Shown here piece after piece: positions 4,498-61,626 of a stretch of 64,000 bases of DNA. The position numbers were made by a program, and so were the translations under genes. The number at the start of each line of letters is the position of its first letter. Position 1 is the stretch's first letter. Under the pieces are notes generated by a model, which worked only from the letters and a program-made list of their open reading frames with translations, was not told the origin of the DNA and ran no database searches. Source of the stretch: a virus (Duplodnaviria > Heunggongvirae > Uroviricota > Caudoviricetes); the IMG/VR virus record IMGVR_UViG_3300025597_000613, positions 23,495-87,494 of that record; one strand, written 5' to 3'.

Positions 4498-4808
4498 TAG
4501 CCCGACACCTTTCGCAGGAAATTCGGCACGGGAATCACATCAACCGTCTTCGGGATCTTCTTTGCAGGTGCCGGTCGGTTACGTGCCGGTTTCGCAGCAT
4601 CTTTATCAAGATACCACATAAGCAATTTTTCTTGCACGAAGTGTGCCATGTTGTTGGTATGATCATGCGCAAACTTCGGCGCATCGGGACCCCAGGATTT
4701 GAACTTGAGGAAATGATGCACTGCCTCGCGGTGCTCGCGATTGGTGGGATCAAATTCGACTGCTTGTTTACGAGTAAGAATCATCTTCAACCTTTGAAAA
4801 TTGTCCAA
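4497..4808 (-). CDS. hypothetical protein (103 aa)
   Basis: minus-strand ORF. Confidence 0.4.
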   Translation of the reverse strand: MDNFQRLKMILTRKQAVEFDPTNREHREAVHHFLKFKSWGPDAPKFAHDHTNNMAHFVQEKLLMWYLDKDAAKPARNRPAPAKKIPKTVDVIPVPNFLRKVSG

Positions 4809-5008
4809 TTATTTTTTACACATATGGCCACCGCCTCGGTGTAATTATCTGCATCAAGCTTTATTTTATTACGAACCGGGACAGTACACCAACCGGTTGT
4901 ATGTGGTCTAAGATGCTGATCACAGTAGATCCAGGCATTGCGCCCAAAGGCAATTTGGTCCTCGGTGGGAGGCTTCTTTAATGCCTCAAATGTATCGTCT
5001 TCAGTCAT
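4787..5008 (-). CDS. small protein, DTF-motif paralog family member
   Basis: N-terminus MTEDDTFEALKK shares the E/D-E/D-D-T-F-x-x-L-K/R motif with 7 other small ORFs in the window. Confidence 0.4.
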   Translation of the reverse strand: MTEDDTFEALKKPPTEDQIAFGRNAWIYCDQHLRPHTTGWCTVPVRNKIKLDADNYTEAVAICVKNNWTIFKG

Positions 5009-5292
5009 GGTTTAACCTCAATCCATACGGCATTATCGATGTCTGGTCGCGCCCATGCTACTTCATTTATCTTATAGATGGTATGGCCACTGTTATTGTC
5101 ACCCAGGTATGGGCCCTGGCTATCATGCGGGAGTTTATGCAATTGTGTTGCCGGAATACAATAGATTCTTTGACCATAAGCATTGTCTGAATATCGAAAA
5201 TGAATACCACGACAAAACAACTCAATATTGAGATGGTCGAATTCATTTTGATTGCCAGAAGGCAAAAGGCAATATCTATCTTCGAATTGCAT
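5005..5292 (-). CDS. hypothetical protein (95 aa)
   Basis: minus-strand ORF; ATG start confirmed in sequence. Confidence 0.4.
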   Translation of the reverse strand: MQFEDRYCLLPSGNQNEFDHLNIELFCRGIHFRYSDNAYGQRIYCIPATQLHKLPHDSQGPYLGDNNSGHTIYKINEVAWARPDIDNAVWIEVKP

Positions 5293-5298
5293 AATGAT

Positions 5299-5373
5299 TG
5301 GTCCGGCGTAGAGGAATCGAACCTCTATCAGCGGATTAGAAGTCCGCGGTTCTGTCCGTTGAACTAACGCCAG
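5299..5373 (-). tRNA. tRNA-Arg (anticodon TCT), 75 nt, CCA encoded
   Basis: hand-folded: acceptor CTGGCGT/ACGCCGG, D arm GTTC-AACGGACA-GAAC, anticodon arm GCGGA-CTTCTAA-TCCGC, T arm AGAGG-TTCGATT-CCTCT, discriminator A + CCA. Confidence 0.8.
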
Positions 5374-5382
5374 ATTTATTCT

Positions 5383-5721
5383 TTATTTACTGAACAGTTT
5401 CAGATGATTTCGTTGAGCCATGTGAATGAAGTCGGCATAACCTGCAGGAACAGGATCGTCTCTTTCTGATACCAGGAATATCAAATCGGGATACAACCCC
5501 TTCAGCATATCGGCCGTGATATCGGTGACAAAATATTCAGCTGCGAAATTTTTATCGGTGCCCCATTCGTACCCGATTTCGGTGAGGAAATCACTTGAAC
5601 TGAAGCCTTCCGCAACGACCAAGAATTCTTGAATCTGTGGATTCAGCCACGAGAACACCGGTACGCCCGGCAGCCCTTTGATATAAATCTTCTTCATGTT
5701 AGCCGAAGAAGCTACTAGCAA
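5383..5721 (-). CDS. hypothetical protein
   Basis: track start is a TTG codon; first ATG is at 5697 (MKKIYIKG...), so the start is uncertain. Confidence 0.4.
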   Translation of the reverse strand: MLVASSANMKKIYIKGLPGVPVFSWLNPQIQEFLVVAEGFSSSDFLTEIGYEWGTDKNFAAEYFVTDITADMLKGLYPDLIFLVSERDDPVPAGYADFIHMAQRNHLKLFSK

Positions 5722-5862
5722 CCTGCACCATGATGATCATTCGTTCATGTTGGCAGAGGAAATTCAGTAGCATGAGGTCGAAAGCGTCTTTGATGATCTG
5801 GTCCATATCTGCTCCTTGTTGCCTATATTATAACAGGCTATGTGTCAGCGGTCAAATATTTA

Positions 5863-6084
5863 TTAAAGGAATAGAAGGGGAATCATAGCCAGGCTGATTA
5901 GGATAAATCCCAGCAGCTTGAGGATGGCCGGCATGGTAAATGCTGCAAGAATAAAACACATTACCTTAGGCCAAAATGTCATCTCGATAGATCCAAGATT
6001 TTCTTGAAAGACAGAGCAATAGAATTTGTAAAGGAAATAAGTTCCAATTACAAAAATTGCCAGAAAGAGAATAGTTTCTATCAT
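5863..6084 (-). CDS. small membrane protein (73 aa)
   Basis: three hydrophobic segments. Confidence 0.4.
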   Translation of the reverse strand: MIETILFLAIFVIGTYFLYKFYCSVFQENLGSIEMTFWPKVMCFILAAFTMPAILKLLGFILISLAMIPLLFL

Positions 6085-6275
6085 GACTTCTCTTGGTAGA
6101 AAGAGAGAAGTCCATCAAGAAGATCAGCAATCTCTATGGAACGAATAGGTACTGCACCGGTTCGCGGGATACCGTCGCCGAGATAGGCCCCTTTGCCGTC
6201 GTTAGGCCCTTTCATGGCGCGCAGCGTGCCAACGAGTTTACGAGCTTGATCGATGTCTATTTCGGGGTTAGGCAT
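6081..6275 (-). CDS. hypothetical protein (start uncertain; could extend to 6437)
   Basis: long ORF 6081..6437 overlaps the translationally coupled gene 6359..6571; internal ATG at 6275 chosen. Confidence 0.3.
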   Translation of the reverse strand: MPNPEIDIDQARKLVGTLRAMKGPNDGKGAYLGDGIPRTGAVPIRSIEIADLLDGLLSFYQEKS

Positions 6276-6358
6276 GATTTTTCTTAATAAAATCAAAGAG
6301 ATAAAAACCGGTTTTTCCGTTATTTCTATCTTATGCGTCTGAGTGCGTCGAATTCTTG

Positions 6359-6571: not shown

Positions 6572-6984
6572 GGCAGTTGCTTGATAACAAGCCTCTTACG
6601 CTCAAGGAGTTCTCTGGTCACCTTTAGTTCGGCTTCCAGAACTTTCGTGCGTGCAATCTCTACATCCACCTTTGCCAGCTCGGAATCTTTTTCGAGGATG
6701 CCCGAGGGTGCAGATGCAGGTGCCTCAACTGTGGAGGTGTAGTCTGGATATTTTCCAGACTTGGTCACCGAAGTCGAAGAATTCGGGCAACGCACAATGT
6801 GGTAGGGTGTACCACTAGAATTCCGGAAGGTAAAGAATTTACAATCCTTCAATTCTGCAGGAACCATGTCCTGAGGAATCATAGGACCCTGATCCACTCT
6901 GGGTTCACACGCCGTCAGAAGAACCGCAATGCCGACAGCAGAGAGCACAGTGGTGGCAGAAATAAACCGCAGAGGGAAGTTCAT
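6568..6984 (-). CDS. predicted lipoprotein (138 aa)
   Basis: signal peptide with lipobox LLTAC. Confidence 0.5.
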   Translation of the reverse strand: MNFPLRFISATTVLSAVGIAVLLTACEPRVDQGPMIPQDMVPAELKDCKFFTFRNSSGTPYHIVRCPNSSTSVTKSGKYPDYTSTVEAPASAPSGILEKDSELAKVDVEIARTKVLEAELKVTRELLERKRLVIKQLP

Positions 6985-6985
6985 T

Positions 6986-7180
6986 TTATTCCTTTCGGAA
7001 AGAACCGTAGGTAGAATTCAGTGCGTCAACGGCATCATGCCATTCTTCTTCGCCCCATTCGGCGAGCATAACGGCTTCATTCATGATGGCGAAGTCTTCG
7101 ATCATGTTTTCCGGAATGGAGTAAAGATTGCCGTCATAATCTTTACGAATGATTTTGCGAATGGCGAGGTCTGTTGTCAT
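6986..7180 (-). CDS. hypothetical acidic small protein (64 aa)
   Basis: minus-strand ORF. Confidence 0.35.
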   Translation of the reverse strand: MTTDLAIRKIIRKDYDGNLYSIPENMIEDFAIMNEAVMLAEWGEEEWHDAVDALNSTYGSFRKE

Positions 7181-7219
7181 GTGTGTATTTTATTGTAGAC
7201 GCCTTTATGCGTCTACTGG

Positions 7220-7705
7220 TTATTGAAGTTTGTCGGAACCTTGCACATAGAAGGAATCACCGCTGATGCTAAATCCTTCCATGGGGTCGGAATTACTGGT
7301 CACCGTCTTACCGGTTTCCACATCGGTTACGGTCGCTTCACCGATCTCATCGTCGGCAAACTCTTCTGTGGCGTATGCGTCATGGAAGGCATCTTGCAAT
7401 TGTGCCAGGAAATTTTCACGCATGATTCGATTCTCTCGCTCGGTACGAAGCATCATACGGAGAATATTCTTGGCATGGGCCTCGCTAAGATCCTGGATCT
7501 GGATGAGGTCACCCTCTTTAGTCATCCAGACTTCGTCGATGTATTCTTTACCATCCTGGGCGACATAGTTGCTTCGTTCAATCCAGGTAAGACGAATCGT
7601 GCCATCTTCGAGCTCATAGGCATCAATGGCATGCTTAGGATTCTTTTGCAATTCATTGAGTTTCTGTTGTGCTTCCGCAACGTCTTTGGTTTCAAATCGG
7701 TTCAT
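7220..7705 (-). CDS. hypothetical protein (start at internal ATG with GGAG 7 nt upstream)
   Basis: ORF 7220..7843; ATG at 7705 preceded by ACGGAG; N-terminal extension looks non-coding. Confidence 0.45.
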   Translation of the reverse strand: MNRFETKDVAEAQQKLNELQKNPKHAIDAYELEDGTIRLTWIERSNYVAQDGKEYIDEVWMTKEGDLIQIQDLSEAHAKNILRMMLRTERENRIMRENFLAQLQDAFHDAYATEEFADDEIGEATVTDVETGKTVTSNSDPMEGFSISGDSFYVQGSDKLQ

Positions 7706-7846
7706 CTTTTTCTCCGTTGTTTTGTTCAGCAAGGTCATTCTCCCTTTCAAGTTTCCTGGAGAGTTCTCTTTTATATTCAGCCTGTGCCTCAATAAGGTCA
7801 CCGAAGACCAGATGTGTAGCAACACCAAGGATGATAATTTCAAAGA

Positions 7847-8249: not shown

Positions 8250-8384
8250 AAGTGTATTTTACTGACCTATAGGGGCAAAGTCAACATCCTGAGATGGGTG
8301 TAACTAAATGTAAATTTATATTCACCAAGGCCAACGCAAGATTCTGTTGCCATAACACCACAAAGATATTACAGGATGAAGAAC

Positions 8385-12577: not shown

Positions 12578-12771
12578 ATATTGTCGCCAAATTTTAATGA
12601 TAATAGAGTGTATTCTTCTTCGGAAATTCTTAGATGGTAATACTTATAAAGCCTATTATCTGGATATCCCGAACCTACCGTCTGATCCCTTATAATTTGA
12701 AACTCGGCACTAACCAGACTTTCGATATATTTAGATTCAGATTTATCAACAGTGAGATTTGCTTCAATCAT
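12565..12771 (-). CDS. hypothetical protein (68 aa)
   Basis: minus-strand ORF. Confidence 0.35.
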   Translation of the reverse strand: MIEANLTVDKSESKYIESLVSAEFQIIRDQTVGSGYPDNRLYKYYHLRISEEEYTLLSLKFGDNIWLR

Positions 12772-13577
12772 AGATCTTTATACAGTTTTACCATGTCTGG
12801 AATGCGCGTCTTGGCATTGCGACTACCAAGCAGGATCATGAATCTTTGACCGGCCGGAGAATCGACCAACATAACAAGACAGCCACCGGCTGGATTTGTG
12901 TATCCTGTCTTCGATAAAAGAATATGCAAAGTGTTGGTCAGAGGATTAGTATTCTTGACCTTGATTGTTTTCTTCTCGGCAGCAATTTCTGCCTTCGGGA
13001 GACTAGAAAGTTGGGTAATTACTTCATTATTGGATGCAACAATCATCAGTTTTAGAAGATCAACCGCGGTGCTAGTATTTTCCCTGCTCAGGCCAGTAGG
13101 TTCAACAAAAGTGGTGTGTTCCATGCCGAGTTCTGCAGCCTTTGCGTTCATAGACTCAACGCAATTGGGCAGATTCTCACAAAGAATCTGTGCGGCAAAA
13201 TTGTCGGATTTAACAAGGGCAAGAGTCAGTAATTCACGACGAGATAGCTTATCAAGCTTTTTCGGAATGCTGCTTTGAACAGAGCGGGTAGAGGGAATAG
13301 GAAGTGACTCATCCAAATCTTGTTCTGCCGTAAGAAGAGCCACCATCAACTTACTAATTGATGCAATGGGGCGAACCTGGTCACTTTCTTTTTCCTTTAG
13401 CACCGTACCATCACGGTCAGCAATGAGGAAGCTCTGTGCAGAAAAAGGTACAGGTGCAACAGGTCTTGATTTCTTTCGTGCCTCGGCATGACCTGCAAAG
13501 GCCAGGGCCATACACGCAATGAGGAGTAGCTTCTTCATAGATTTATGTATTTTAGCACTGATGTAATAGATTTGCAA
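12768..13577 (-). CDS. secreted serine D-Ala-D-Ala carboxypeptidase / PBP-beta-lactamase-fold protein
   Basis: signal peptide MKKLLLIACMALAFAGHA; active-site triad SISK (SxxK), SDN, KTG in canonical order and spacing. Confidence 0.65.
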   Translation of the reverse strand: MQIYYISAKIHKSMKKLLLIACMALAFAGHAEARKKSRPVAPVPFSAQSFLIADRDGTVLKEKESDQVRPIASISKLMVALLTAEQDLDESLPIPSTRSVQSSIPKKLDKLSRRELLTLALVKSDNFAAQILCENLPNCVESMNAKAAELGMEHTTFVEPTGLSRENTSTAVDLLKLMIVASNNEVITQLSSLPKAEIAAEKKTIKVKNTNPLTNTLHILLSKTGYTNPAGGCLVMLVDSPAGQRFMILLGSRNAKTRIPDMVKLYKDL

Positions 13578-19062: not shown

Positions 19063-20265
19063 TTATCGACGCTTCGGGGAATGACTATCCGGCTCGTACC
19101 AGGCAGTCATACCAAACGGTGCAACCAACCGATGAGACGGGTCACCGTGAATCAGGAACAGGGTGTCGCAATAATTCTCATCACCCCAGCTACCACAAGG
19201 ATAACCGTCCGTCATCATAATGAATCGTTCAGGTTGCAGGTCCTTAGACTTCATGAACTCCCAATTACACATGAAATCGGTGCCACCGCCACCGGCCAGC
19301 GGATACTCATTGATTTCTTCGAGATTTTCCGGAGTGTACTTGATATGGTTGTACACGCGAGTATCGAAGCACCAAACATCCAGCTCAAAGTCCATGAACT
19401 GTTCCATAATGCCCTTAGTTTCGCCGAGCAAATCGCGCAGCATATCTTCAGACATAGAACCCGACGCATCGATGGAGACAGCGGCCTTGACCTTGAAGTC
19501 ATTCTTGGTAGCAGGCAGATAGATGCCCGAGGCCTGCATCTTACGCGAGCAACGATCCCAGGTAAAATCGCTCTTCACCATCGATTGAATCTTCATGTTA
19601 AGAATCTCGCGCCAGTCCATCTGCGGCTCGGTGAGATCCTTCAGCATGCGGCGCACACCGGCAGGGGTATTACCGGCACCGGATGCCTTCGCAGCCTGCA
19701 TCACAGCATTGCGAATTTCGTCACGCAGCGCGGCAACTTCTTCGGCCGACATGGGTTCACCACGACCATCACCGGAGCCGGGCTCAAGGTGGATGTCGAA
19801 CTCGGGGAAGTTTTGGTTCGGATCCTTCATCAGCAGTTCGTAGACTTCTTCAGCGAACATGCCCTTGTACTTTTCATCGATACAACCTTGCACACCCGAA
19901 GTCTTCGGATTCGGCATCTTACCGATGCGGTGCTCACTCAGTTCCAGATTGATAACGAAGTCGGCTGCCGCGTTCCACATCTTCGGCTTACGCTCACCAC
20001 GACGGTTCATGTGATCGTAGACACAGTGTTCCACTTCGTGCGCAACAAGGAAGATGGTCTCTTGTTTATCGAGTTTGGAGATGAAATCACGGTTGTAGTA
20101 GAAATAGCGACCGTCCGTACCGGCGGTCTTACACCAGTCTTCATCAGTCGCATCCTTGAGGATCAGGCGCGTGGCCAGCGTACCCCAAAACGGTTGCTGA
20201 AGGAGAAGGGAAATACGAGCGCGGGTGAGTTGCTCAAGAACGGCTGCGGGACTGTTATCTGCCAT
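19063..20265 (-). CDS. VWA-domain protein with N-terminal HExxH metallopeptidase-like domain (DUF2201-like, MoxR partner)
   Basis: HEVEHCVYDH (HExxH); MIDAS motif DASGSMS; start set at ATG preceded by AGAGG. Confidence 0.7.
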   Translation of the reverse strand: MADNSPAAVLEQLTRARISLLLQQPFWGTLATRLILKDATDEDWCKTAGTDGRYFYYNRDFISKLDKQETIFLVAHEVEHCVYDHMNRRGERKPKMWNAAADFVINLELSEHRIGKMPNPKTSGVQGCIDEKYKGMFAEEVYELLMKDPNQNFPEFDIHLEPGSGDGRGEPMSAEEVAALRDEIRNAVMQAAKASGAGNTPAGVRRMLKDLTEPQMDWREILNMKIQSMVKSDFTWDRCSRKMQASGIYLPATKNDFKVKAAVSIDASGSMSEDMLRDLLGETKGIMEQFMDFELDVWCFDTRVYNHIKYTPENLEEINEYPLAGGGGTDFMCNWEFMKSKDLQPERFIMMTDGYPCGSWGDENYCDTLFLIHGDPSHRLVAPFGMTAWYEPDSHSPKRR

Positions 20266-20331
20266 TGTAGACCTCTTAGTTGATGTTTGTATTTTAGTAG
20301 GATGTTGCGTAATGGTCAACCAGTTGCACCA

Positions 20332-20514
20332 TTATATATCCATTGCGCATTCATGACTGCATCTTTCGCAGCAATTGCACATGGTTTCGTAATCTTCGTT
20401 TATTTCCTCAGTGTAGGGACAGGTATGAGGTTCGAGGCCTGTACGGTTGCATCTGTCGCATTTTCCGTACACTAGTCGCTCAAACGTCTCTTCCTCGGTG
20501 TGGGTCTTTTTCAT
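20332..20514 (-). CDS. small Cys-rich protein, DTF-family-like N-terminus
   Basis: MKKTHTEEETFERL... then CDRC/CPY/CNCCERCSHEC cluster; track's longer ORF reads through an upstream hairpin, so start moved to internal ATG. Confidence 0.4.
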   Translation of the reverse strand: MKKTHTEEETFERLVYGKCDRCNRTGLEPHTCPYTEEINEDYETMCNCCERCSHECAMDI

Positions 20515-20804: not shown

Positions 20805-21896
20805 TCAGTCTTCCAGGATGTACTTACCGTACTTCTCGTGGAACTGCTTGAACGCCTTCAGCTCGCGGTGGTTAATCAGTTCCACGTAGTCGCGCAGTGC
20901 GGTCTTAGCACCCAGGACGATCATCTCGGTCTGGAAGTTAGCCATCATGTACACGAAGAAGTTATCCACGCATTCATGCCACGCCTTCATATCGAAGCCG
21001 TCTTCCTTCGCCTTCGCCTTCGCGGTCCATTCCTGGAGCGTATAGCACATGGAGATGGTCAGCGAATACATGGCGCTCAGATCCTTGACGTTCAGATCCT
21101 TGACCTTACCCACCAGCACATCTTCCGGCTTCGGCATCTTGGCCGCAACACGACGGTGAGCAGCGAACTCGGTAGCCAGACCGTCACCAACGGTACCGGC
21201 GACCAGCGTCGTATTCAGCGATTCCGGCAGCTCGTCACCAATCAGCTGCGAAACGAATGCCCACGAACGCGGAGTAGCGAACGCCTTGTCCGGGCTCTTC
21301 GGATCGAAGTTGAAGAGCTTTTGCTTGTGGTGCGACAGGAAGCCCACGACGTCCGGATGGACCTTGGCACCAATCGCCCACTTCTGCCAGTCTTCGAAGT
21401 TAGCACCCATCTCGATGTGAACCAGACGGTTGGCCAGCGGGCTGGGCATACGGTAGGTAACACCCTTGTCGCTATCACGGTTGCCCGCGCACACCATCGA
21501 CACACCCTTCGGCAGCTTGTATTCGCCAACACGACGGTTCAGGATCAGCTGGTAGGCCGCAGCTTGCACGCTCGGCGGAGCAGCGTTGATTTCGTCCAGG
21601 AACAGGATTGCATTTTCCAGGAACGTGTCGGTCGGCAGGTCAGCCGGTTGCGCCCACTTCATCGTCTTCGATTCCGGATCAAAATACGGAATACCCTTGA
21701 TGTCGGTCGGTTCCAGCAGAAGCAGACGCATGTCGATAACGGGACGACCAGTCTCTTCGCCGATCTCGGCAATCAGTTCCGACTTGCCAATGCCCGGAGG
21801 GCCCCAGATCATCGCAGGGCGGCCAACCTTCATGCAACGGGTCAGCAGGGTTCGAACGTCGCGCGGACGGCTGGGATCACGGGTGGAATTGCTCAT
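20805..21896 (-). CDS. MoxR/CobS-like AAA+ ATPase
   Basis: Walker A GPPGIGKS; Walker B ILFLDEIN; ~360 aa single AAA module typical of MoxR/CobS family. Confidence 0.8.
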   Translation of the reverse strand: MSNSTRDPSRPRDVRTLLTRCMKVGRPAMIWGPPGIGKSELIAEIGEETGRPVIDMRLLLLEPTDIKGIPYFDPESKTMKWAQPADLPTDTFLENAILFLDEINAAPPSVQAAAYQLILNRRVGEYKLPKGVSMVCAGNRDSDKGVTYRMPSPLANRLVHIEMGANFEDWQKWAIGAKVHPDVVGFLSHHKQKLFNFDPKSPDKAFATPRSWAFVSQLIGDELPESLNTTLVAGTVGDGLATEFAAHRRVAAKMPKPEDVLVGKVKDLNVKDLSAMYSLTISMCYTLQEWTAKAKAKEDGFDMKAWHECVDNFFVYMMANFQTEMIVLGAKTALRDYVELINHRELKAFKQFHEKYGKYILED

Positions 21897-22944: not shown

Positions 22945-23606
22945 ATACTTCCTTTAATAATACCGACCATGGTATCACTTTCTTCTTCGAAGCGTTGTTG
23001 CTCCAACCCGGGCCAATCGGCAAGGAAAATCTTCACATCATAACCCCAACTTTCATTTCCGCCACCACCAGAGCCGGTTTTTAATCCAACAAGATTAACT
23101 AGTGCGCTATATGGATAATCATTATTGTGTTTAGGGAGTCGCTTCAAGACCCCGTCGATACGACCATTCCACCCGGGATAACCCTTAGGTAATGTAGGAT
23201 CATTTACACACCAATTTGTGGTGCCATTATCGGGACATCTATGCGAATTAGATATCAATTTATTGAATCTACCAACCTTAAGCGTCAATTTGGTAAATTC
23301 ATCAGTATCTGGATAGCATTTTTCAGAGAAGGAATGATAGTCCTTGGCGTGAATTCCCGCTTTAAAAGCTTTCATGATTGTTTTCTGGTTTTCCAGGAAC
23401 CAGGGAACAATTTGATCCACATGAGTAATTTTTAGTTTTTCTTCATGGAGCCATTTCCAGAAATTTTTGGAAATTTGCCTATATTCGCGCTCGTCCCTCA
23501 TCTCCTTGCGTAACTCCTTGAGATGATTTATATATTTTCTTCGCTCATGTTTTTCGAAGATGAGCCCGGTAAACCGGCATTTATATACCTCGACACGCAT
23601 TAACAA
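22941..23606 (-). CDS. hypothetical protein (221 aa)
   Basis: minus-strand ORF; Gly-rich segment TGSGGGGNESWG. Confidence 0.45.
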   Translation of the reverse strand: MLMRVEVYKCRFTGLIFEKHERRKYINHLKELRKEMRDEREYRQISKNFWKWLHEEKLKITHVDQIVPWFLENQKTIMKAFKAGIHAKDYHSFSEKCYPDTDEFTKLTLKVGRFNKLISNSHRCPDNGTTNWCVNDPTLPKGYPGWNGRIDGVLKRLPKHNNDYPYSALVNLVGLKTGSGGGGNESWGYDVKIFLADWPGLEQQRFEEESDTMVGIIKGSI

Positions 23607-31065: not shown

Positions 31066-31326
31066 TTATTTCCTGTTATAGGGAGGTAAAAAGGATCTGA
31101 TAGTTCTTTCTCTTTCGTAATCTTCTTTTGTCCACCCATACATCTTAATTCGTTTTTCAATGCAATCTTCCGACACAAATGGGTCGTCCAGTTGCCTCAT
31201 TCTTAATTGCACCACTCCCGTGTGTACTTCAGTAAAGGATGAACGCCGAAGTGCCTTAAACGTATCCTCTTCGGTATGATATGTAGTCATAAAAGGAAAA
31301 AGGTTGTGTACCATTATAGCACACAA
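31066..31326 (-). CDS. small protein, DTF-motif family member
   Basis: TEEDTFKALRRSSFTEV...MYGWTKEDYE; start uncertain (track start is TTG). Confidence 0.4.
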   Translation of the reverse strand: MCAIMVHNLFPFMTTYHTEEDTFKALRRSSFTEVHTGVVQLRMRQLDDPFVSEDCIEKRIKMYGWTKEDYERERTIRSFLPPYNRK

Positions 31327-31364
31327 CCTGGGGAGTTACGACAGGAGTTTCCTCCTGCCTTCAC

Positions 31365-32921: not shown

Positions 32922-33329
32922 TCATTCGCCGAGAATGTCCTTAACCCTCTGTCTATCTTGTGCCAATTCTGCTAGAATCTTTACATATTGGCTAAATTTT
33001 AGGTCGGAATCGTTACATCCGATAAGGTAGTTACTACCATCTTTCAGATATACGGTACCCAGCAAGGTTTCAACATCATCGGAGTCGTGGAACGTGTCAG
33101 TAAAGGCACGCTCGCTAAATGTTTGAGGCTGAATGGTCTTTTCCCAATCTACTCCGTATTTCTTTACATCCTCGCGGAGTTTCTTCATGGCAGCATCACT
33201 CTTGCGCCAATCATTATGCAAATATTCATAATGGCCGCCGTAGTAACTCCAATTACCATCGGTGAGTACTCCATTTTCAATCATGTAGGCCCACACAAAT
33301 TTTAGAGATTCGTCTTCTTTCTGTCCCAT
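32922..33329 (-). CDS. hypothetical protein (135 aa)
   Basis: minus-strand ORF. Confidence 0.4.
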   Translation of the reverse strand: MGQKEDESLKFVWAYMIENGVLTDGNWSYYGGHYEYLHNDWRKSDAAMKKLREDVKKYGVDWEKTIQPQTFSERAFTDTFHDSDDVETLLGTVYLKDGSNYLIGCNDSDLKFSQYVKILAELAQDRQRVKDILGE

Positions 33330-33562
33330 AATCTTCTCCCAAATTCCTTATAGTATTCTTCTGCTGCCCATCCATAAGGATGGAGTATCTTGTTTAGTTG
33401 TTCTTTATTTGTTGTCATGGTGTTGAGGTCACCATCGGTGTATGTTCCCGAATTAATAATTCCCTGGAGATGAAGACTAACTTCCTCGTAGGTACATCTA
33501 CGTAGTAATCTAAATGTTTCGTCCTCAGGTGCAGTCACAGTAATTTTTCCTGCAAGAAGCAC
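33302..33562 (-). CDS. small protein, DTF-motif family member
   Basis: EDETFRLLRRCTYEEV...YGWAAEEYY. Confidence 0.4.
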   Translation of the reverse strand: MLLAGKITVTAPEDETFRLLRRCTYEEVSLHLQGIINSGTYTDGDLNTMTTNKEQLNKILHPYGWAAEEYYKEFGRRLWDRKKTNL

Positions 33563-33719
33563 AGGGGCACCTACCGCCGGGCGGAATCGGTGGATAGTTG
33601 CCCCATCCGTTCTTCTTTATATCCTTGTATGATTTATAACCAAGCACAAGATAAATGACAAGCATTACTCCTATGAAGGAAAAGAAGACGGTTAGAAATA
33701 TAACATCAAGAATAGGCAT
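33525..33719 (-). CDS. small membrane protein with C-terminal Cys cluster
   Basis: TM helix then GGRCPCASCRKNYCDCT. Confidence 0.35.
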   Translation of the reverse strand: MPILDVIFLTVFFSFIGVMLVIYLVLGYKSYKDIKKNGWGNYPPIPPGGRCPCASCRKNYCDCT

Positions 33720-33738: not shown

Positions 33739-33927
33739 TTAAAAATTGCCTGATTTATCGTATTCGTTATATTCTTCTATGGTGTAGCCGGCTTCTTTCA
33801 GATACCTTTCAAGGTCTCTGCGCTCTCTGATAAAACCGAGGGCTATTTTTTTGAATATATGTTCGTATACTTCCTCGATAGGGCGGCGTGAGAGTCTACG
33901 AAAAGTGTCTTCCTCGGAAAAATCCAT
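33739..33927 (-). CDS. small protein, DTF-motif family member
   Basis: MDFSEEDTFRRLSRRPIEEV. Confidence 0.4.
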   Translation of the reverse strand: MDFSEEDTFRRLSRRPIEEVYEHIFKKIALGFIRERRDLERYLKEAGYTIEEYNEYDKSGNF

Positions 33928-38608: not shown

Positions 38609-39268
38609 ATGGATTATCAAAAACATTATACACGGCTTATCGAACGTGCGCAAGATAGAATCTTACCGGACTACTCTGAAAAACATCATATATTGCCAAG
38701 ATGCCTCGGTGGTTCAAATTCTAAATCAAATATTGTAAAATTAACACCCGAGGAACACTATGTTGCCCATCAGTTATTATCTAAGATACATCCAGAAAAT
38801 CATTCGCTGAAAAAAGCTGCATGGATGATGACAGTAAGATCAGCAAATCAGCAAAGAAATAATAAAGCCTACGGATGGATTAAAAGAAATGCTCGCCCGA
38901 TGGGCATCACCAATGGTATGTTTGGGAAGACACATTCGGATGAGATAAAAACCAAACTTGCAGAATTAGCCAAACACAGATTTTCAGGTAAGACCTATGA
39001 GGAATTATACGGAAAAGAAAAATCTGATAAATTAAAATTCCAGAGATCAATCAAAGCAAAAGAATTGAGGGCAAAACATCCGACTGTGGGAAAACTCAAC
39101 CCGAATGCTAAATCTTATAAATTTACCAATCCCGAAGGGAATGAATTTTATGTATCTGGAAATTTGAAAGAATTCTGTAAGACAAATAGTCTATGGATTG
39201 AGAAAATTATAGATGTTGCAAAAGGACGAATACCAGAATATAGAGGTTGGAAAATTATCTATGTGTAA
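38609..39268 (+). CDS. HNH homing endonuclease (freestanding, plus strand)
   Basis: N-terminal HHILPRCLGGSNSKSNIVKLTPEEHYVAH is an HNH_3-type motif; opposite strand to neighbours, inserted between two minus-strand genes. Confidence 0.75.
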   Translation: MDYQKHYTRLIERAQDRILPDYSEKHHILPRCLGGSNSKSNIVKLTPEEHYVAHQLLSKIHPENHSLKKAAWMMTVRSANQQRNNKAYGWIKRNARPMGITNGMFGKTHSDEIKTKLAELAKHRFSGKTYEELYGKEKSDKLKFQRSIKAKELRAKHPTVGKLNPNAKSYKFTNPEGNEFYVSGNLKEFCKTNSLWIEKIIDVAKGRIPEYRGWKIIYV

Positions 39269-39522
39269 TCTCCTTCAGTTCTGGCAAATCTCTCAATATC
39301 AAATTCACTTTCGGTCCAACCATATTTCCGGTATGCCTTATTCCATGCGTCCTTAATCATTTCTTTAATTACATCTAATTCGGCCTTACTGGCGGTCTTA
39401 TAACGCTTTGCATGCTTCCTCATTAACCGACGAGCCTCTTGCGCCTCCTCACTGGTATCCAAATCCTCGAATGTTTTCCTTCCTAATTTTCTAAAACATT
39501 CATCTTCGTCATTTTCACTCAT
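39259..39522 (-). CDS. small protein, DTF-motif family member (variant)
   Basis: DEDECFRKLGRKTFEDL...YRKYGWTESEFD. Confidence 0.4.
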   Translation of the reverse strand: MSENDEDECFRKLGRKTFEDLDTSEEAQEARRLMRKHAKRYKTASKAELDVIKEMIKDAWNKAYRKYGWTESEFDIERFARTEGDYT

Positions 39523-52810: not shown

Positions 52811-53989
52811 TCAATACTTTGGACGAGCAACATGCTTTCTGTAATCGTTATTATTTCTTGCCCACTGCTGACCGCCACCTTCTAGAATATCAATGGTGCG
52901 ATCAATGGTTCCATTTTGCCAATCACTTACGGCACCGGTAGAATATGCCCATGGCGACAATATCATGCTTCTAAGTCTCATATTGGCATCCTGGATGCTC
53001 CATGGGATATACATATTATCGGCATTATTGGCGAACACCTCTGGAAAACTTCTATATGCAGGATAAAGAGTCAGTGTGCCAAAGGTATCGGCCTCGCTAA
53101 CGGTGTTGCTTACCCAATCCTGTAATGCACAATTGAACAGAACCATGCTATTGGATAGAAGTGTGTAATAATCATTCTTCTTCAATCCTGTGTAGATTTT
53201 GAAATTAGCCTTGTCACTTCCCTGCAATGCTAGGGCGCGTTCCACTAATTCGTGATTATTACTCTTTAGTTCGGGATGACCACAAAACACCGCAAACTCT
53301 ACATCGGGCGTATGTTTATAGAATTCTTCTGCAAGATCCATATAAAAATGCGGTTGCTTCTCATCGTCCCAGCGTGCTGCAAACCCGACGCGCCTAGTTC
53401 TCTGTGTGATGTCTTTAGGTGCAGGAATACGACTACGTACTTCATCTTTACCAAACGGCAAGCCAGTCACATAGATTGGGGCAGTCATGCCTGCAATGCG
53501 CAGATGAGCTACCATTTCTTCACTAGCCACAAGTATACCAGTAACAAATTCGTCAACCATCTGTTCATATTTTCTCATCCAATGAGCCATTCCCTCACGG
53601 TTCACGAAATCGTCTGGATCGATAGTTTGTGCAAGGCATCTAACATAAACCATGGGACGATATTCTGCAGGAACCTGTTCAAGAATATATGGTAGACTTT
53701 CAATACCCGGAGTATACATATCTTCATAGAAGATGACGTCTTCGCTTGTAACCTTACCTTCTTTCATCAACTTAATAAGATTTGCAGTTTGATGAAGACT
53801 GTAGAAGGTACGACCATGGGCATCAAGAACACTACCGGTAACAATTTTCTTATCTGTGGTTAATTCCATGCCGGTAATGCATTCATAATCAATTCCGCGT
53901 AGTTTGAACACACGCTCATTCCAATCTTGCAATTGAAGTGTGTAACGACTTTCATAAGATTCAAGGCCCATATACCAAATTTTTCGCAT
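52811..53989 (-). CDS. putative glycosyltransferase (GT-B-like)
   Basis: ~390 aa; weak GT-B features (RVGFAARWDDEKQPHF mid-protein, C-terminal E-x7-E-like SEADTFGTLTLYP); assignment tentative. Confidence 0.35.
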   Translation of the reverse strand: MRKIWYMGLESYESRYTLQLQDWNERVFKLRGIDYECITGMELTTDKKIVTGSVLDAHGRTFYSLHQTANLIKLMKEGKVTSEDVIFYEDMYTPGIESLPYILEQVPAEYRPMVYVRCLAQTIDPDDFVNREGMAHWMRKYEQMVDEFVTGILVASEEMVAHLRIAGMTAPIYVTGLPFGKDEVRSRIPAPKDITQRTRRVGFAARWDDEKQPHFYMDLAEEFYKHTPDVEFAVFCGHPELKSNNHELVERALALQGSDKANFKIYTGLKKNDYYTLLSNSMVLFNCALQDWVSNTVSEADTFGTLTLYPAYRSFPEVFANNADNMYIPWSIQDANMRLRSMILSPWAYSTGAVSDWQNGTIDRTIDILEGGGQQWARNNNDYRKHVARPKY

Positions 53990-54011: not shown

Positions 54012-54959
54012 ATGATAAATATTTATAGATTGTTACAACTGTATAGGTATTATTTCGTTATGTCAACAAAGAAGCTCACACAAGATACTTTCATCTCTCG
54101 CTGTAAAGAAATACACGGAGATAAATTTGACTATTCCCCGGCAGTCTATAAAAACATGGCCACAAAGGTGCAGATTATATGCCATTCTTGTAATATAGAG
54201 TGGGAGGTAACGCCTGCAAATCATATACATCTGAAATCCGGATGCCCACAGTGTAAGACAAATAAACATCAAATTAGGATGAATTCTGCAGTCCTCTCTA
54301 CTGAGGAATTTATTTCTCGCTCTAAAGAAATGCACGGCAACAAATTTGACTACTCAATGTCCGAATACAGAGGATCTAATACCAAAATAAAAATTCTTTG
54401 TCCTATACACGGTGAGTTTGAACAATGGCCGCAGGATCATATGAACGGTCGCGGTTGTGAAAAATGCAGTGGTGTAAAAAAGAAAACTACTGAAGAATTT
54501 ATTTCTCAGGCTAAAAGTATTTTCCCGCAATTTGACTATTCACTTGTGGAATATGTAAATGCACATACTCCAGTAAAAATTATTTGTCCTGAACACAACG
54601 AATTCCTTCAAAAGCCTAATGCAATCTTGAATCATATAGGTTGCGAGAAGTGCGGCATTGAAAGAATGTTACAGACCAAAATAGAAAGAAAAATTATTGC
54701 CGATCCTGCAGATAAAACTGAATATGAAAACTATCGTAGAAAAGTTTGGAGAATTTCAAATCAACAATATAAACTACACAAAGATAAAATCAATCCAGAA
54801 AATTTGCCACGAAGTTTGAAATATCATCTAGACCACATCTATTCAATTCAACAGGGATGGGTAAACGGAAAACCAGCTGAAGAAATTGGGCACTGGACAA
54901 ATCTTCAAATATTGGAAGGTACTGAAAATAGGAAGAAGGGAAATAAACTTATTATTTAG
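54012..54959 (+). CDS. HNH homing endonuclease with three tandem zinc-ribbon DNA-binding repeats (plus strand)
   Basis: three repeats EEFISx...HGxKFDYS...CxxHGEF...GCxKC, then C-terminal HNH (HLDHIYSI...NLQIL...NRKKGNK); opposite strand to neighbours. Confidence 0.7.
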   Translation: MINIYRLLQLYRYYFVMSTKKLTQDTFISRCKEIHGDKFDYSPAVYKNMATKVQIICHSCNIEWEVTPANHIHLKSGCPQCKTNKHQIRMNSAVLSTEEFISRSKEMHGNKFDYSMSEYRGSNTKIKILCPIHGEFEQWPQDHMNGRGCEKCSGVKKKTTEEFISQAKSIFPQFDYSLVEYVNAHTPVKIICPEHNEFLQKPNAILNHIGCEKCGIERMLQTKIERKIIADPADKTEYENYRRKVWRISNQQYKLHKDKINPENLPRSLKYHLDHIYSIQQGWVNGKPAEEIGHWTNLQILEGTENRKKGNKLII

Positions 54960-55281: not shown

Positions 55282-55574
55282 AATCTAAAAATCATCCTAA
55301 CATCATTATCAATAAATGTTGAATTTGCTGATTCTGGGGTAAGAAATCCATAAGGAATATATATCTCTACAAATTCCTCATATGGATCTTCTATCACAGT
55401 TGTTTTTGTCTTCCAATAATCAATTTCTGTATCTAAAGATTTAGTCTCATTATCACGTATATAAACAATTGAATAATCCGTGCTAACAACTATTCTCTTA
55501 TAATTTTGATTTGCAGGATCATTCAACAATGCCCTTGCACCCTGAATCTTGTTTGCCGTTACCTGTGTATTCAT
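55278..55574 (-). CDS. hypothetical protein (98 aa)
   Basis: minus-strand ORF, 4-nt overlap. Confidence 0.4.
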   Translation of the reverse strand: MNTQVTANKIQGARALLNDPANQNYKRIVVSTDYSIVYIRDNETKSLDTEIDYWKTKTTVIEDPYEEFVEIYIPYGFLTPESANSTFIDNDVRMIFRL

Positions 55575-55915
55575 TGGTCTTCGTCCTTTTTATATTCTGG
55601 TCTTATTGTGAAAATTTTGCCCGTAGATTCCTGCATTGGTTGAACGCCCATAATTTCATGTGCAATAGTTCCGGGTATTATTCTTCTAATCATCGGCATT
55701 ACGATTTTTTCAAAATCAGAAATTACCGGCTTCGGTGGTGCAGCAAGACGACGAACAATTTCATCTGCTTCCTCCTCCTCGGTCATTGCGGCTTTCTTAA
55801 GATTGACTTCCTCGATAAGAAATTTTCGATGATTCTCTAGTATTTCTTTACTTAGATCATCAAGGCTGTCAATCAAGCTTTTCTTGGTCGGATCATATTT
55901 AGCAGTGTCAGTCAT
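55571..55915 (-). CDS. hypothetical protein (114 aa)
   Basis: minus-strand ORF, 4-nt overlap. Confidence 0.4.
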   Translation of the reverse strand: MTDTAKYDPTKKSLIDSLDDLSKEILENHRKFLIEEVNLKKAAMTEEEEADEIVRRLAAPPKPVISDFEKIVMPMIRRIIPGTIAHEIMGVQPMQESTGKIFTIRPEYKKDEDQ

Positions 55916-56159: not shown

Positions 56160-56404
56160 GTCTCTAAATCCTTCATTATTTCTGCATCAATTTCTGCCGA
56201 AATTTCCTGCGAAAGTATTTCACTTATTACCTTAGCAAGTTCTGCTGCCTTTTCAGCATCAAGTTCTTGTTTGGTTTTCGATAGTTTACTGACAATTTCG
56301 TCAGCTTGCGACTCATCCGCGGGATTTATGTCAGCTGAGCTCTTCGACGGTGTATCCGTTAAAGGTAATCTCGAAATCAGGGAGTTCCAATCTATCCCAG
56401 TCAT
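56132..56404 (-). CDS. doubtful small acidic helical protein
   Basis: N-terminal part is Ser/Thr-rich and overlaps the 2H phosphoesterase gene by >70 nt. Confidence 0.2.
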   Translation of the reverse strand: MTGIDWNSLISRLPLTDTPSKSSADINPADESQADEIVSKLSKTKQELDAEKAAELAKVISEILSQEISAEIDAEIMKDLETWRKGTSTY

Positions 56405-56789
56405 TTGGTGCGTCAGAGGCGACAGTGATGTGCGCGATGTATTCCGGGTAGTCATGTGTTGCTCCGTGTTTTTCCATAAACAGTTCATGCAATCTTGTTG
56501 CATTGGGACAATAAATTTCGAGAACCAAGACTTTCTTGTCTGTCCCTAAAACTTTCCAACCAATTGGTAATGCCTGACATGGTAGTCCAAAATCTTCTCT
56601 TGCGACATCGGAACACTCTGTCTTACTGTAGATTATTGTACAGTGATATTCATCGGAATCCACAAGATTTTCGATGCCTTGCTTCACACAAAAATTCAAT
56701 AATTCTTCGCGTGATTCGACTGATGGAATTAAGCTTGAATAGGTACCGCCAGGATGTGCAGATTCAAAAAGGTAATCAATTTTCTTCAT
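56331..56789 (-). CDS. 2H-superfamily phosphoesterase (Acb1-like / LigT-like cyclic phosphodiesterase)
   Basis: two H-x-T/S-x motifs (YHCTIIYS, AHITVASD) ~72 residues apart; 152 aa. Confidence 0.55.
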   Translation of the reverse strand: MKKIDYLFESAHPGGTYSSLIPSVESREELLNFCVKQGIENLVDSDEYHCTIIYSKTECSDVAREDFGLPCQALPIGWKVLGTDKKVLVLEIYCPNATRLHELFMEKHGATHDYPEYIAHITVASDAPNDWDRLELPDFEITFNGYTVEELS

Positions 56790-59026: not shown

Positions 59027-59048
59027 CTTAATTCCCTTTTGTAACCTA

Positions 59049-60617
59049 TTACTCATCGAGATTGATAAGATCTTCCTTATCGAGACTTGCAAGTTCTTCG
59101 ACGGTAGGTACGTGTTCTTCGTTACCTTCCTCTTCACCACCGAATAATGATTCAAAAGTGGTTACTGCCTTCTTGTCGCCGAAGCTGACATAGTCAAGGA
59201 ATGCCTGATTCTCCTTCAACATAGTATACGGATCTTTATTTGAGGGGTCAAGAAGTTCTTCTACGAAATTATTAAAGAATAGAATTGAATTAGGGACAAA
59301 ATCACTAATGTTGGTTTGCTTCTTCTTATCTCTCATTTGATACCAGTCTTTGTAACTGATATTTTTACGAACTGCATATTCGATGTCAGCTAATCTATTG
59401 ATTTCCTGAACAGCCTGAATGTGGTTGTAGACATTATGCGCCATTACCAATGCATAGGTAGTGGTATCCCAGCTTGTCTTACCAATCTTGTCTTGCTTGT
59501 TCTTATCGGTGGGACCCATTACGCACATATCACCAGTTGTCAAACGTTCCATAATTGGGCCCTGGAATGGCATTGCATAATCTGTGCCTTTAAGTCCCTT
59601 GTCGTCGAGGCCGCGGCCCATTGCGTATGTTAGCTGATCTGGCTTGAAATAATTGTAGTTATAGGACAATGCATAGCCACCCGCTGCCACAAATGGGCTT
59701 GCAGCGTCAAAGCTGATGTTGACATTAGGATTATCGTGCTTCCTCAATAATCTCTCAATGGATGTCAAATAGCATGCCCAATCAAGTCTACCAATGCCCA
59801 AGAAGTGAATCCAGTCCTTGCCTTCGAGGAGACCGTCCCTGCGTAGATCAAGCATTCGTTCAAGAACAGTTTTCATGTTCTTCATGTTAATACCTGCAAA
59901 TGCATAACCTTCCAGAGTATGGTTACGTGGATAGCCCATTAATTCTACGGAATCTGGATTACTGAAATGCTTAACTTCCTCGTACCATTCTTTAGAATTT
60001 TCATTATCGCTACCAGATAGGACATTTAGGAATTTTGTCTTTCCCGGAATTCTATTCTTGATAAAATAATGCAGATTGTGGACAGAGATATCCAGCGTAT
60101 CTTCAAATTTAGTCAATCCTGTTTTGGCACTGAGTGGTGGCTTGGCCGCAAAGGCAGGAACATCCAGCGTCATTGACCAATCTGCTGTGTGTTCGAGATA
60201 ACGAAGAATTTCTTCCCTGAGCTTGTCACCTTCGGGGCCCTTCACTGTTGCCCAATCCAGTTTAATAACACCGGTAGCGATTTGGAATCCACCCGAGTCA
60301 CCGATGAGAATAGTTTTCTCCCGATCGCGCTCGTGGATCATAGGTTCCCTCTTGTCACATTTATCAAGATTTCTCTCTGCGTGACCTGCCGAATACAATC
60401 CAAATTTGTAATTGAAGTAACTACCTTCTTCCTTCAGAAAATTAAGGCCTTCGATTCCATATTCGAAATTCTTTGGAATACGCTCAGCCGGAATAAAATT
60501 CGGATCTGATTGTGCCTTTCCGAGATGTGTAGTATAGAAGCCACTAATTGCTGGGAGATATTTTGCCCATCCGCCAGCCAGATGTCTTTCTGTGAAATTT
60601 ACTCTGTTTTTTGTCAT
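59049..60617 (-). CDS. dpdA: TGT-family transglycosylase, DpdA-like (DNA 7-deazaguanine insertion)
   Basis: ILIGDSGGFQ matches TGT catalytic-Asp motif (LTDSGGFQ); FLGIGRLDW resembles TGT LMGVGKPEDL; co-located with QueE/QueD-like genes. Confidence 0.6.
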   Translation of the reverse strand: MTKNRVNFTERHLAGGWAKYLPAISGFYTTHLGKAQSDPNFIPAERIPKNFEYGIEGLNFLKEEGSYFNYKFGLYSAGHAERNLDKCDKREPMIHERDREKTILIGDSGGFQIATGVIKLDWATVKGPEGDKLREEILRYLEHTADWSMTLDVPAFAAKPPLSAKTGLTKFEDTLDISVHNLHYFIKNRIPGKTKFLNVLSGSDNENSKEWYEEVKHFSNPDSVELMGYPRNHTLEGYAFAGINMKNMKTVLERMLDLRRDGLLEGKDWIHFLGIGRLDWACYLTSIERLLRKHDNPNVNISFDAASPFVAAGGYALSYNYNYFKPDQLTYAMGRGLDDKGLKGTDYAMPFQGPIMERLTTGDMCVMGPTDKNKQDKIGKTSWDTTTYALVMAHNVYNHIQAVQEINRLADIEYAVRKNISYKDWYQMRDKKKQTNISDFVPNSILFFNNFVEELLDPSNKDPYTMLKENQAFLDYVSFGDKKAVTTFESLFGGEEEGNEEHVPTVEELASLDKEDLINLDE

Positions 60618-60814
60618 TTGAATCTGTAATCGTTTAGTTTGGTAATGAAATCGTCGACATTCCAGCCATGATCCACAATAATATGGTGGTAGAATTCGTG
60701 AAGCGTAAGTTGAAAAGTTTGTGGATTTACAGTAACTCTATCATTGATAATATTTCTTACCGTCCTAAAGTCTGTTCTCTTTAAGGCTTCGAAAGTCCTG
60801 TCGTAATCGTCCAT
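60614..60814 (-). CDS. small protein, DTF-motif family member
   Basis: MDDYDRTFEALKRTDFRTV...HGWNVDDF. Confidence 0.4.
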   Translation of the reverse strand: MDDYDRTFEALKRTDFRTVRNIINDRVTVNPQTFQLTLHEFYHHIIVDHGWNVDDFITKLNDYRFK

Positions 60815-60821
60815 ATTGTAT

Positions 60822-61073
60822 TTAGATTTTTGGCCGTGGAGGAAGCAATATTCCCTTTAGAAGTTTCTTTGCAAACTTCTTGTCATTCCTGATTCTTTCT
60901 TCTAACTCATCCATTCGAGGTTTCATTTCGGGATCAGATAAACGAACTGGTTCGCCATTTTCCCAAAATCCGCCACGGGCTTCGGCAGCCCGGAGATCAC
61001 GCCATGTGTGATAATCCGGATACTTTAGTGCCCATAGGGTTTCTAAGTAATCCGGTGTTTTCTTAGGCATCAT
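60822..61073 (-). CDS. hypothetical protein (83 aa)
   Basis: minus-strand ORF. Confidence 0.4.
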   Translation of the reverse strand: MMPKKTPDYLETLWALKYPDYHTWRDLRAAEARGGFWENGEPVRLSDPEMKPRMDELEERIRNDKKFAKKLLKGILLPPRPKI

Positions 61074-61398
61074 CTACTACAATTCCAGACTCAATAATAG
61101 ATCTAATCTCGAATTTTTCGCCCACATGTATTCCACGAACAATATATGTCTGGAATGAAGATGCCTTTTCATAATGTTTCTTAATCGGCATAAATGTCTG
61201 GGAATCTAAGACAACCACATCCATAGGAATATTCTGTTCGATTACCTTTCGAAATTTTAGTTTTTGTGACCTAACATTTTCGTCAATAACCCCGTAATTA
61301 TCGAGATTCAAAACAGAATAATATTCTTTTAATTCAGTAAAAATTTCCTCGGGAACATTATCCAAATCTAACCTATTATGTCTAAAAGTTTTGTCCAT
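61063..61398 (-). CDS. hypothetical protein (111 aa)
   Basis: minus-strand ORF. Confidence 0.4.
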   Translation of the reverse strand: MDKTFRHNRLDLDNVPEEIFTELKEYYSVLNLDNYGVIDENVRSQKLKFRKVIEQNIPMDVVVLDSQTFMPIKKHYEKASSFQTYIVRGIHVGEKFEIRSIIESGIVVDDA

Positions 61399-61401
61399 AA
61401 T

Positions 61402-61626
61402 TTAAGCCTTTCTTTCCCATCCTAATTTAATAAGAAGCTTTTCGTGCTCTGCACTAAAATCATCGTATGTCCAGCCATATGCTGCTAATTTTTCTACAAT
61501 ATATGGTCGAAACAATATTTCTGGCCGAAATGTATTGGGATTTATTATTACCCAACTATCCTTGTTTAGAACTGAAACAAAGGGCTCTCGTTGCAGTCTT
61601 CGAAAAGTATCACCCTCGTTCGTCAT
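61402..61626 (-). CDS. small protein, DTF-motif family member
   Basis: MTNEGDTFRRLQREPFVSV...YGWTYDDF. Confidence 0.4.
   Translation of the reverse strand: MTNEGDTFRRLQREPFVSVLNKDSWVIINPNTFRPEILFRPYIVEKLAAYGWTYDDFSAEHEKLLIKLGWERKA

Follow-up and report, generated by a model that had tools for sequence, protein, structure and literature searches.

In phage T4, the internal proteins are small, diversified anti-defence proteins that carry an N-terminal capsid-targeting sequence, and IPI, at least, has an anti-defence role. In bacteria, polymorphic-toxin loci (SUKH, Imm) contain tandem arrays of diversified immunity proteins. Repertoires diversified in this way are characteristic of conflict between host and parasite. 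Small accessory proteins with lineage-specific expansions are also already known from very large phages: Bacillus phage G carries a small zinc-ribbon expanded to about 35 copies, which was called 'unprecedented' (Iyer et al. 2021, PMC7824862). Here we analyse a family of small proteins encoded in a 64,000-nucleotide stretch of the tailed-phage record IMGVR_UViG_3300025597_000613 (positions 23,495 to 87,494), hereafter called the window. Each typical member combines a conserved N-terminal motif (N-motif) and a conserved C-terminal motif (C-motif), separated by a variable middle. It is established that this family is real, widespread and new to the libraries and literature searched, and that it has undergone lineage-specific expansion and evolves by birth and death.

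Members of the family in the window

The preliminary description of this DNA had listed at least eight members. All eight open reading frames (ORFs) are present at the coordinates listed there, all on the minus strand; six of them are solid members, but one is only probable and one is doubtful.

61402..61626, minus strand: member of 74 aa, MTNEGDTFRRLQREPF...YGWTYDDF; leave-one-out E 1.3e-7
60614..60814, minus strand: member of 66 aa, MDDYDRTFEALKRTDF...HGWNVDDF; leave-one-out E 2.6e-3
39259..39522, minus strand: member of 87 aa, long-middle subtype, MSENDEDECFRKLGRKTF...YGWTESEF; leave-one-out E 2e-4
33739..33927, minus strand: member of 62 aa, GYT variant of the C-motif; leave-one-out E 4.1e-5
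33302..33538, minus strand: member of 78 aa if started at GTG 33538, MTAPEDETFRLLRRCTYEEV...YGWAAEEY; leave-one-out E 7.4e-10
31066..31290, minus strand: member of 74 aa, MTTYHTEEDTFKALRRSSF...YGWTKEDY; leave-one-out E 3.8e-11
4787..5008, minus strand: probable degenerate or truncated member of 73 aa, canonical N-motif MTEDDTFEALKKPP, divergent body
20332..20514, minus strand: doubtful member of 60 aa, 'TEEETFERL' followed by a Cys-rich tail; E 0.05-0.9

The E values of the first six come from hidden Markov models (HMMs) trained on five of the six two-motif ORFs and run against 1,108 stop-to-stop ORFs. The sixth ORF, left out of training, was the top non-training match every time (E 3.8e-11 to 2.6e-3), which bears out that these genes form a true paralogous family. 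Judged by their sequences, the first six ORFs are homologous beyond reasonable doubt.

That the motifs arise from compositional chance, or that gene starts carry a signal in the nucleotides themselves (for translation initiation, say, or a promoter), would agree with their position at the extreme 5' end of genes and with the short, compositionally biased proteins. This explanation, whose chance part the preliminary description had itself named as a refuting outcome, is refuted and keeps practically no probability. In a six-frame pattern scan, the N-motif is confined to the coding strand and to the starts of short ORFs, with one internal exception at 59162. Against shuffled controls, the pattern [DET]TF[REK].L was observed 7 times with 0.54 expected and G[WY][TNA].[ED][ED][YF] 5 times with 0.02 expected; both in the correct order within one ORF occurred 4 times, and never in 400 shuffles. 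Moreover, the codons that specify the motif vary among copies (GATACA, GAGACG, GAAACA or GACACT; TTT or TTC), so that conservation acts at the protein level and not on a DNA or RNA element at gene starts. The leave-one-out matches, with E as low as 4e-11, and the 1,468 external homologues described below complete the case.

ORF 4787-5008 is probably, to judge from its sequence, a decayed member. It matches the family through its first 18 residues only (E 1.1e-5 among 4,430 ORFs; 0.01-0.1 with the leave-one-out models), and hmmalign aligns its N-motif alone. It terminates in '...VKNNWTIFKG*', akin to an 'NNWT' variant of the C-motif seen at locus L013, the last helix being absent, and it has no relatives in IMG/VR. 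As to the Cys-rich ORF 20332-20514, its membership is not demonstrable: about nine residues are common with the family, and homologues were found neither in IMG/VR nor among 5.8 billion proteins. In our reading of the sequences, its N-terminal segment is closest to member 31066, in amino acids as well as in nucleotides. The ORF may be chimeric, its 5' end being family-like, or the resemblance may be due to chance.

Two pairs of members described earlier as adjacent are in fact near neighbours, with one or two unrelated ORFs between them. The small interleaved ORFs 33525-33719, 60822-61073 and 61063-61398 were considered as cryptic members and rejected. The first of these (minus strand, 64 aa), which lies between two members, begins with a transmembrane-like segment and ends in a Cys-rich tail (CPCASCRKNYCDC). 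Elsewhere in the window, ORF 1478-1846 (minus strand) contains the C-motif-like string 'VYGWADSDTY' without an N-motif (E about 0.15-1.3 against the family HMM), a likeness that is probably due to chance.

Member 61402..61626, which is also protein P0001 of public metagenome contigs, overlaps with its start the stop of an upstream 241-aa gene, while the stop of member 60614..60814 (E 3.6e-14 against a 145-sequence family HMM) overlaps the start of a downstream 522-aa gene, and member 33739..33927 begins 2 nt past the stop codon of the gene for the RNA ligase RtcB. Member 39259..39522 lies upstream of a metallophosphoesterase (Metallophos) gene and has a counterpart at L019 6488-6760, just upstream of Metallophos; member 31066..31290 lies just downstream of a gene for an SPFH/Band_7 protein, and L018, another locus, has members at the equivalent position.

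Two starts required attention. The maximal ORF of member 33302 reaches 33562, but GTG 33538 is most likely its start on sequence grounds, since the family N-terminal register then fits (MTAPEDETF) and AGGA lies 10 nt upstream. Member 31066 is taken to start at ATG 31290 because the upstream candidates TTG 31326 and ATG 31314 fall within a hairpin:

31301..31329, minus strand: intrinsic-terminator-like hairpin with a 13 bp stem, a 3 nt loop and a T-tract, between the SPFH gene and member 31066

Upstream of 31290, the sequence TGCTATAAT is promoter-like at first sight (TATAAT in the loop region); it belongs to this hairpin and was rejected as a promoter. Promoter-like sites are not enriched in the window (25 found, 23.8 expected). 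The starts of 20332, 31066 and 60614 have no Shine-Dalgarno-like sequence while others of the family have AGGA or GAGG, perhaps a sign that the host makes little use of Shine-Dalgarno sequences.

Signature, arrays and turnover in metagenomes

A profile built from the six-member core pulled in external relatives with a very sharp consensus. Exhaustive searching of 1.84 billion metagenomic cluster representatives with HMMER, a search of the kind that the preliminary description had proposed, gave 1,468 representatives at E<=1e-3, of which 77 at E<=1e-10, and nearly all are 55-90 aa long. Their signature is MTE[DE]DTFR[RK]L[KR]RxP[FY]xE[MVL] ... variable middle ... GWTx[ED]E[YF], or in short MTEEDTFRRLKR-PF-E ... 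GWT-EE-Y; in the sequence logo the second part extends to [LF]-x-x-[YHN]-G-W-T-x-[ED]-E-[YF]-x-x-E. Positions E3, T6, F7, L10 and W49 of the logo are 98-100% conserved, while information falls below 0.5 bit at most of the roughly 24 positions of the middle (19-42). In length the middle usually measures 30-36 aa, and up to 51.

Of 154 proteins, 117 have the domain at their very first residue. Two copies are present in a few proteins, and in one of these (P0023) the second copy is without Met, which argues for a domain rather than a mere leader peptide. Throughout the loci examined, a recognisable C-motif accompanies the N-motif in about 45 of 48 cases. Domain fusions that could hint at function are absent among the family hits, the only multi-domain proteins being tandem repeats of the same domain.

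As the preliminary description had stated, the family is not assignable to a known domain. With the eight window ORFs and 145 members as queries, no family of Pfam-A, PHROGs or NCBIfam matched more than three members even at E<=5, and no match attained the curated cut-off; the family profile found nothing among Protein Data Bank (PDB) sequences. Three candidates were tried by profile comparison and rejected. The H-NS modulators Hha/YmoA/Cnu, with a four-helix domain of roughly 70 aa, were suggested by a likeness of 'DYLMRLRRC' to 'DTFRRLKRI', which failed (hhalign probability 0.25%, only 12 columns aligned); the Myb/SANT repeat reached 1.4%, and a single helix follows GWTxEE here, against two further Trp-anchored helices in Myb/SANT; the anti-sigma factor AsiA of T4 reached 0.6%.

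A tblastn search with three members against 50,697 GenBank phage records gave nothing, such 60-aa queries missing relatives below about 45% identity. When 185,579 reference genomes were scanned with degenerate codons, the single match arose by chance within a larger ORF, and the family appears essentially absent from these genomes at the sequence level. Strict scans of metagenomes and genomes for the N-motif pattern gave one or two loci each, one of them a chance match in a Thermaceae metagenome-assembled genome. An HMM scan of 41 kb around the DNA polymerase of the nearest cultured relatives, the phages Phosso and Atu_ph07, about 9% of those genomes, detected no member. The family is not described in the literature searched, whether by its motifs or under paralogue families of jumbo phages. 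In all samples analysed here it is present only on phage-like metagenome contigs, the longer of which are mostly huge-phage-like.

Nearly every contig that bears the family carries several copies, mostly head to tail:

L001: 8 copies, flanking RtcB
L005 (237 kb IMG/VR contig): 6-7 copies
L006: 4 copies
L013/L014: 7 copies
L017: 4 copies
L018: 7 copies
L019: 4 copies
JAWVHB010000039.1 (NCBI metagenome contig of 379 kb): at least 31 copies within 24.7 kb, with runs of more than 10 consecutive genes

The window itself is a sparse version, with six or seven dispersed copies. With 4 to at least 31 copies per contig, largely in tandem, this is a lineage-specific expansion of a small domain in jumbo phages. 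The preliminary description missed this main point, namely that the window holds a few copies of a massively expanded multigene family of huge phages, spread over the 1,468 clusters.

Synteny relates three of the listed loci (L001, L018 and L019) to the window phage, with conserved genes at 66-79% nucleotide identity to L001, and they have the gene order Metallophos - RtcB - small genes - Band_7 - AAA in common. Within this frame, family copies occupy hot spots after RtcB, after Band_7 and upstream of Metallophos, in differing numbers. The copies arise by tandem duplication at conserved hot spots. While the syntenic neighbour proteins are 30-85% identical, the best family pair, member 33739..33927 and its closest match in L001 (P0012), reaches 44% over 50 aa. 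Rapid diversification, as suggested earlier, is therefore upheld: members share at most 44% identity, their number and position shift, and gain, loss and divergence of copies proceed much faster than change in the genes beside them. Duplication and decay are ongoing, as shown by a partial duplicate of the preceding member's C-terminus at L018 10370-10444 and by a member at L012 9594-9808 whose N- and C-halves are in different reading frames.

Elsewhere, the arrays are surrounded by small genes without annotation, by homing-endonuclease genes and by the gene of a SleB-like hydrolase. Such surroundings raise the question whether the family is dispensable, selfishly amplifying filler at recombination hot spots, possibly with homing endonucleases and with no common host-directed role. 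The richness of these regions in homing endonucleases (SegE-like GIY-YIG, NUMOD3, DUF723) would fit, as would the pseudogenised and partial copies and the decayed or chimeric look of 4787 and 20332. However, about ten positions keep 85-100% identity throughout the 1,468 clusters, whose identity is otherwise near 25%, which indicates strong purifying selection on a folded protein. Reading frames are also intact, and several overlap or abut their neighbours, suggesting translational coupling. We consider filler improbable.

On the phage-like contig of L013, about 3 kb upstream of the seven-copy array, lies a 133-aa homologue of ribosomal protein bL12 (PF00542) at 6834-7235.

The window and its phage

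The genes of the window bear out its phage origin. Its larger ORFs encode a family-B DNA polymerase, a 5'-3' exonuclease, RtcB, the SPFH/Band_7 protein, the metallophosphoesterase, radical-SAM proteins and a sugar epimerase, and about 116 of some 137 plausible genes are on the minus strand. Other features are as follows.

1696-2298, minus strand: SleB-like cell-wall hydrolase (Hydrolase_2)
3554-3629, minus strand: tRNA-Met (CAT)
5299-5373, minus strand: tRNA-Arg (TCT), about 300 nt upstream of the degenerate member 4787-5008
12768-13577, minus strand: PBP5-like D-Ala-D-Ala carboxypeptidase (Peptidase_S11, E 1.7e-35)
19063-20319, minus strand: DUF2201 metallopeptidase/VWA protein
20805-21896, minus strand: MoxR-type AAA ATPase, forming a close pair with the preceding gene, the doubtful Cys-rich ORF 20332-20514 lying in between
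56331-56789, minus strand: Acb1 homologue (anti-CBASS phosphodiesterase), 152 aa (Pfam PF23474, E 1.2e-16, 61 bits against a cut-off of 27)

A SleB-like hydrolase like that of the window phage is found again beside family arrays in L006, L012 and L017. With the DNA polymerases of Phosso and Atu_ph07, phages of 470-490 kb, its own shares about 42% identity, and with those of Rak2-like phages about 39%. There is no nucleotide-level match of the window among GenBank phages. The sequence of the window is also present on metagenome contigs of up to 239 kb, which indicates that it is a piece of an uncultivated huge phage.

T4-type core genes are present in this phage. The C-terminal 48 residues of a 114-aa ORF (55571-55915, minus strand) match positions 1-48 of the profile of the T4 major capsid protein Gp23 (E 3e-13). 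Some 600 bp from it, the opposite strand encodes a homing-endonuclease-like protein with a DUF723 / treble-clef zinc finger (54012-54959, plus strand), followed by a 392-aa ORF without family match (52811-53989, minus strand). The arrangement could represent a capsid-propeptide gene that has been split or that acts as a decoy.

Both the T4-type core and this Gp23 N-terminal segment speak for the view that the family consists of packaged or injected internal proteins as in T4, the N-terminus being a capsid-targeting and processing signal and the bodies diversified anti-restriction cargo. The frequent position of the motif at residue 1 is in its favour, and the motif runs into a hydrophobic-x-E pattern (P-[FY]-x-E) that loosely resembles the site of the T4 prohead protease, [LI]-x-E. 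However, the site residue is F or Y here against L or I in T4, and the genes lie among replication and nucleotide-metabolism genes, not with recognised structural genes. The N-motif is moreover bound to the C-motif in what is predicted to be one folded domain, it also occurs internally and without Met in P0023, and proteins with the N-motif alone are rare. This view is very improbable.

Predicted fold, possible role and comparison with known systems

AlphaFold2 was run on member 61402..61626 with 21 and with 145 aligned sequences, and both runs gave the same four-helix model (pLDDT 79, pTM 0.62) with helices at 4-12, 16-27, 36-49 and 54-67. Confidence is 87-92 at the ends and 63-66 in the middle. 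The domain is thus predicted to be a small four-helix unit, and the core members to be all-helical, without a Cys/His metal site; three fold searches with the predicted model gave no significant structural neighbour. One conserved end is the helix at the N-terminus, TE[DE]DTFRRLKR, with P-F-x-E-M after it; the other is a C-terminal turn and helix (GWTxEE[YF]xxE). T2-x-x-D5 and T50-x-x-E53 would be classical helix N-capping boxes, and F7, L10, F15, M18, W49 and Y54 would form the hydrophobic core, so that most conserved positions would build a clasp joining the two termini. Of the conserved features, the basic face of helix 1 (R8, R9, K11, R12) would then be the only one exposed. The net charge by segment is -3 for the N-cap, +3 for helix 1, -1.5 for the middle, -2 for the GWT helix and +1 for the tail; the whole protein is about -2, with a mildly acidic median pI of 5.4.

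This charge pattern concerns a further alternative, in which the members bind nucleic acids, as expanded small transcription factors or structural DNA- or RNA-binding proteins. In this case the GWT turn would be the centre of a helix-turn-helix made of helices 3 and 4, while contacts to the backbone would come from the tail, which is basic, and from the basic side of helix 1. Three-helix DNA-binding domains of the homeodomain-like or helix-turn-helix type, with their basic or polar recognition helix, are the known systems closest to this reading. The conserved +3 of helix 1 and the mean +1 of the tail agree with it, and the same role was proposed for the zinc-ribbon expansion of about 35 copies in Bacillus phage G (PMC7824862). 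Yet the would-be recognition helix (T-x-[ED]-E-[YF]-x-x-E) is acidic, and so are the proteins overall, a mild acidity that is atypical for DNA binders. In addition, no helix-turn-helix family of Pfam recurred even at E<=5, and the comparison with Myb remained at the 1.4% given above. Nucleic-acid binding is rather unlikely.

We tentatively favour, at somewhat less than even probability and because other diversified arrays offer an analogy, a set of small proteins that would bind host factors, in counter-defence or takeover. The conserved ends would be a fixed scaffold, whose capping boxes and F/L/F/W/Y core would explain most invariant residues, while the variable middle would present a surface specific to each paralogue. 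Each binder would neutralise or redirect one protein of the host or of a competing element, the likeliest targets being defence effectors or other targets of host takeover, and the basic face of helix 1 could be the common contact surface. What suggests a host-directed binder is the combination of a constant scaffold, a hypervariable middle, birth-and-death evolution and the presence of the RtcB and Acb1 genes in the window. The neighbourhood is indeed conflict-related: the RNA-repair ligase RtcB adjoins members, and the Acb1 homologue, a known anti-defence gene, is in the same gene block as the family. The effector or regulator role in host takeover or anti-defence put forward in the preliminary description is a reasonable hypothesis.

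Several points weigh against such a repertoire. Its function is drawn from analogy with other diversified arrays, and the AlphaFold2 model is of moderate confidence only. An independent functional link to RtcB was rejected, the adjacency being synteny inherited within one clade, and on other contigs the arrays sit among anonymous small genes. Close contig pairs are at least 99.8% identical, so that the ratio of nonsynonymous to synonymous substitutions carries no information on positive selection. Finally, E3 and T6 are about 98% invariant, above the need of a purely structural role, and a specific common activity or ligand may be overlooked.

A bolder form of the binder repertoire is a germline set of mini-binders, in which a helical scaffold of about 60 residues, clasped by the invariant terminal motifs, would have been diversified in its hypervariable middle through tandem duplication into dozens of paralogues per genome, each neutralising a different defence effector (nucleases or toxins, for example) or redirecting a different host factor. 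We regard it as a possibility, albeit a doubtful one; if true, it would be the phage counterpart of bacterial immunity-protein arrays and an untapped source of anti-defence proteins.

Whatever the role, a domain with a sharp signature and at least 1,468 clusters stands without entry in Pfam, PHROGs or NCBIfam, and its signature is usable now as a marker for the phage clade and to seed the alignment of a new database family. Very large phages may commonly spend coding capacity on expansions of this sort. If members are diversified binders of host proteins, they would provide many candidate anti-defence or host-takeover proteins on a compact, easily synthesised scaffold, and bacterial viruses would gain a model of evolution by birth and death.

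Among known systems, T4 IPI, IPII and IPIII resemble the family as small fast-evolving accessory proteins of T4-related phages with a conserved extreme N-terminus and divergent bodies. In contrast to them, the N-motif here is half of a folded domain, is paired with the C-motif and can be internal; the co-occurrence of both motifs and the internal copies speak against a separable N-terminal signal of the T4 type. No sequence similarity to the T4 internal proteins was found, PHROGs, which is built from cultured phages, giving no family match.

The SUKH/Imm arrays are alike in their head-to-tail, highly diverged small paralogues, with a conserved scaffold, a variable surface and birth and death, a pattern that provides the logic of the proposed binder mechanism. 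No toxin domains were seen among the neighbours of family genes, and no homology of the family to Imm or SUKH families of Pfam was detected. Those arrays are bacterial, whereas the present family is carried by lytic-type huge phages and is absent from the reference bacterial genomes searched.

The zinc-ribbon case of phage G has in common with ours dozens of paralogues of a very small domain per jumbo-phage genome, read as diversified binders. The two are unrelated in sequence and fold, the present domain being predicted all-helical and free of a Cys/His metal site. In scale they match, with about 35 copies there and at least 31 on one huge-phage contig here. The zinc-ribbon expansion was described for one phage, whereas the present family extends, as its 1,468 clusters indicate, across many uncultivated phages.

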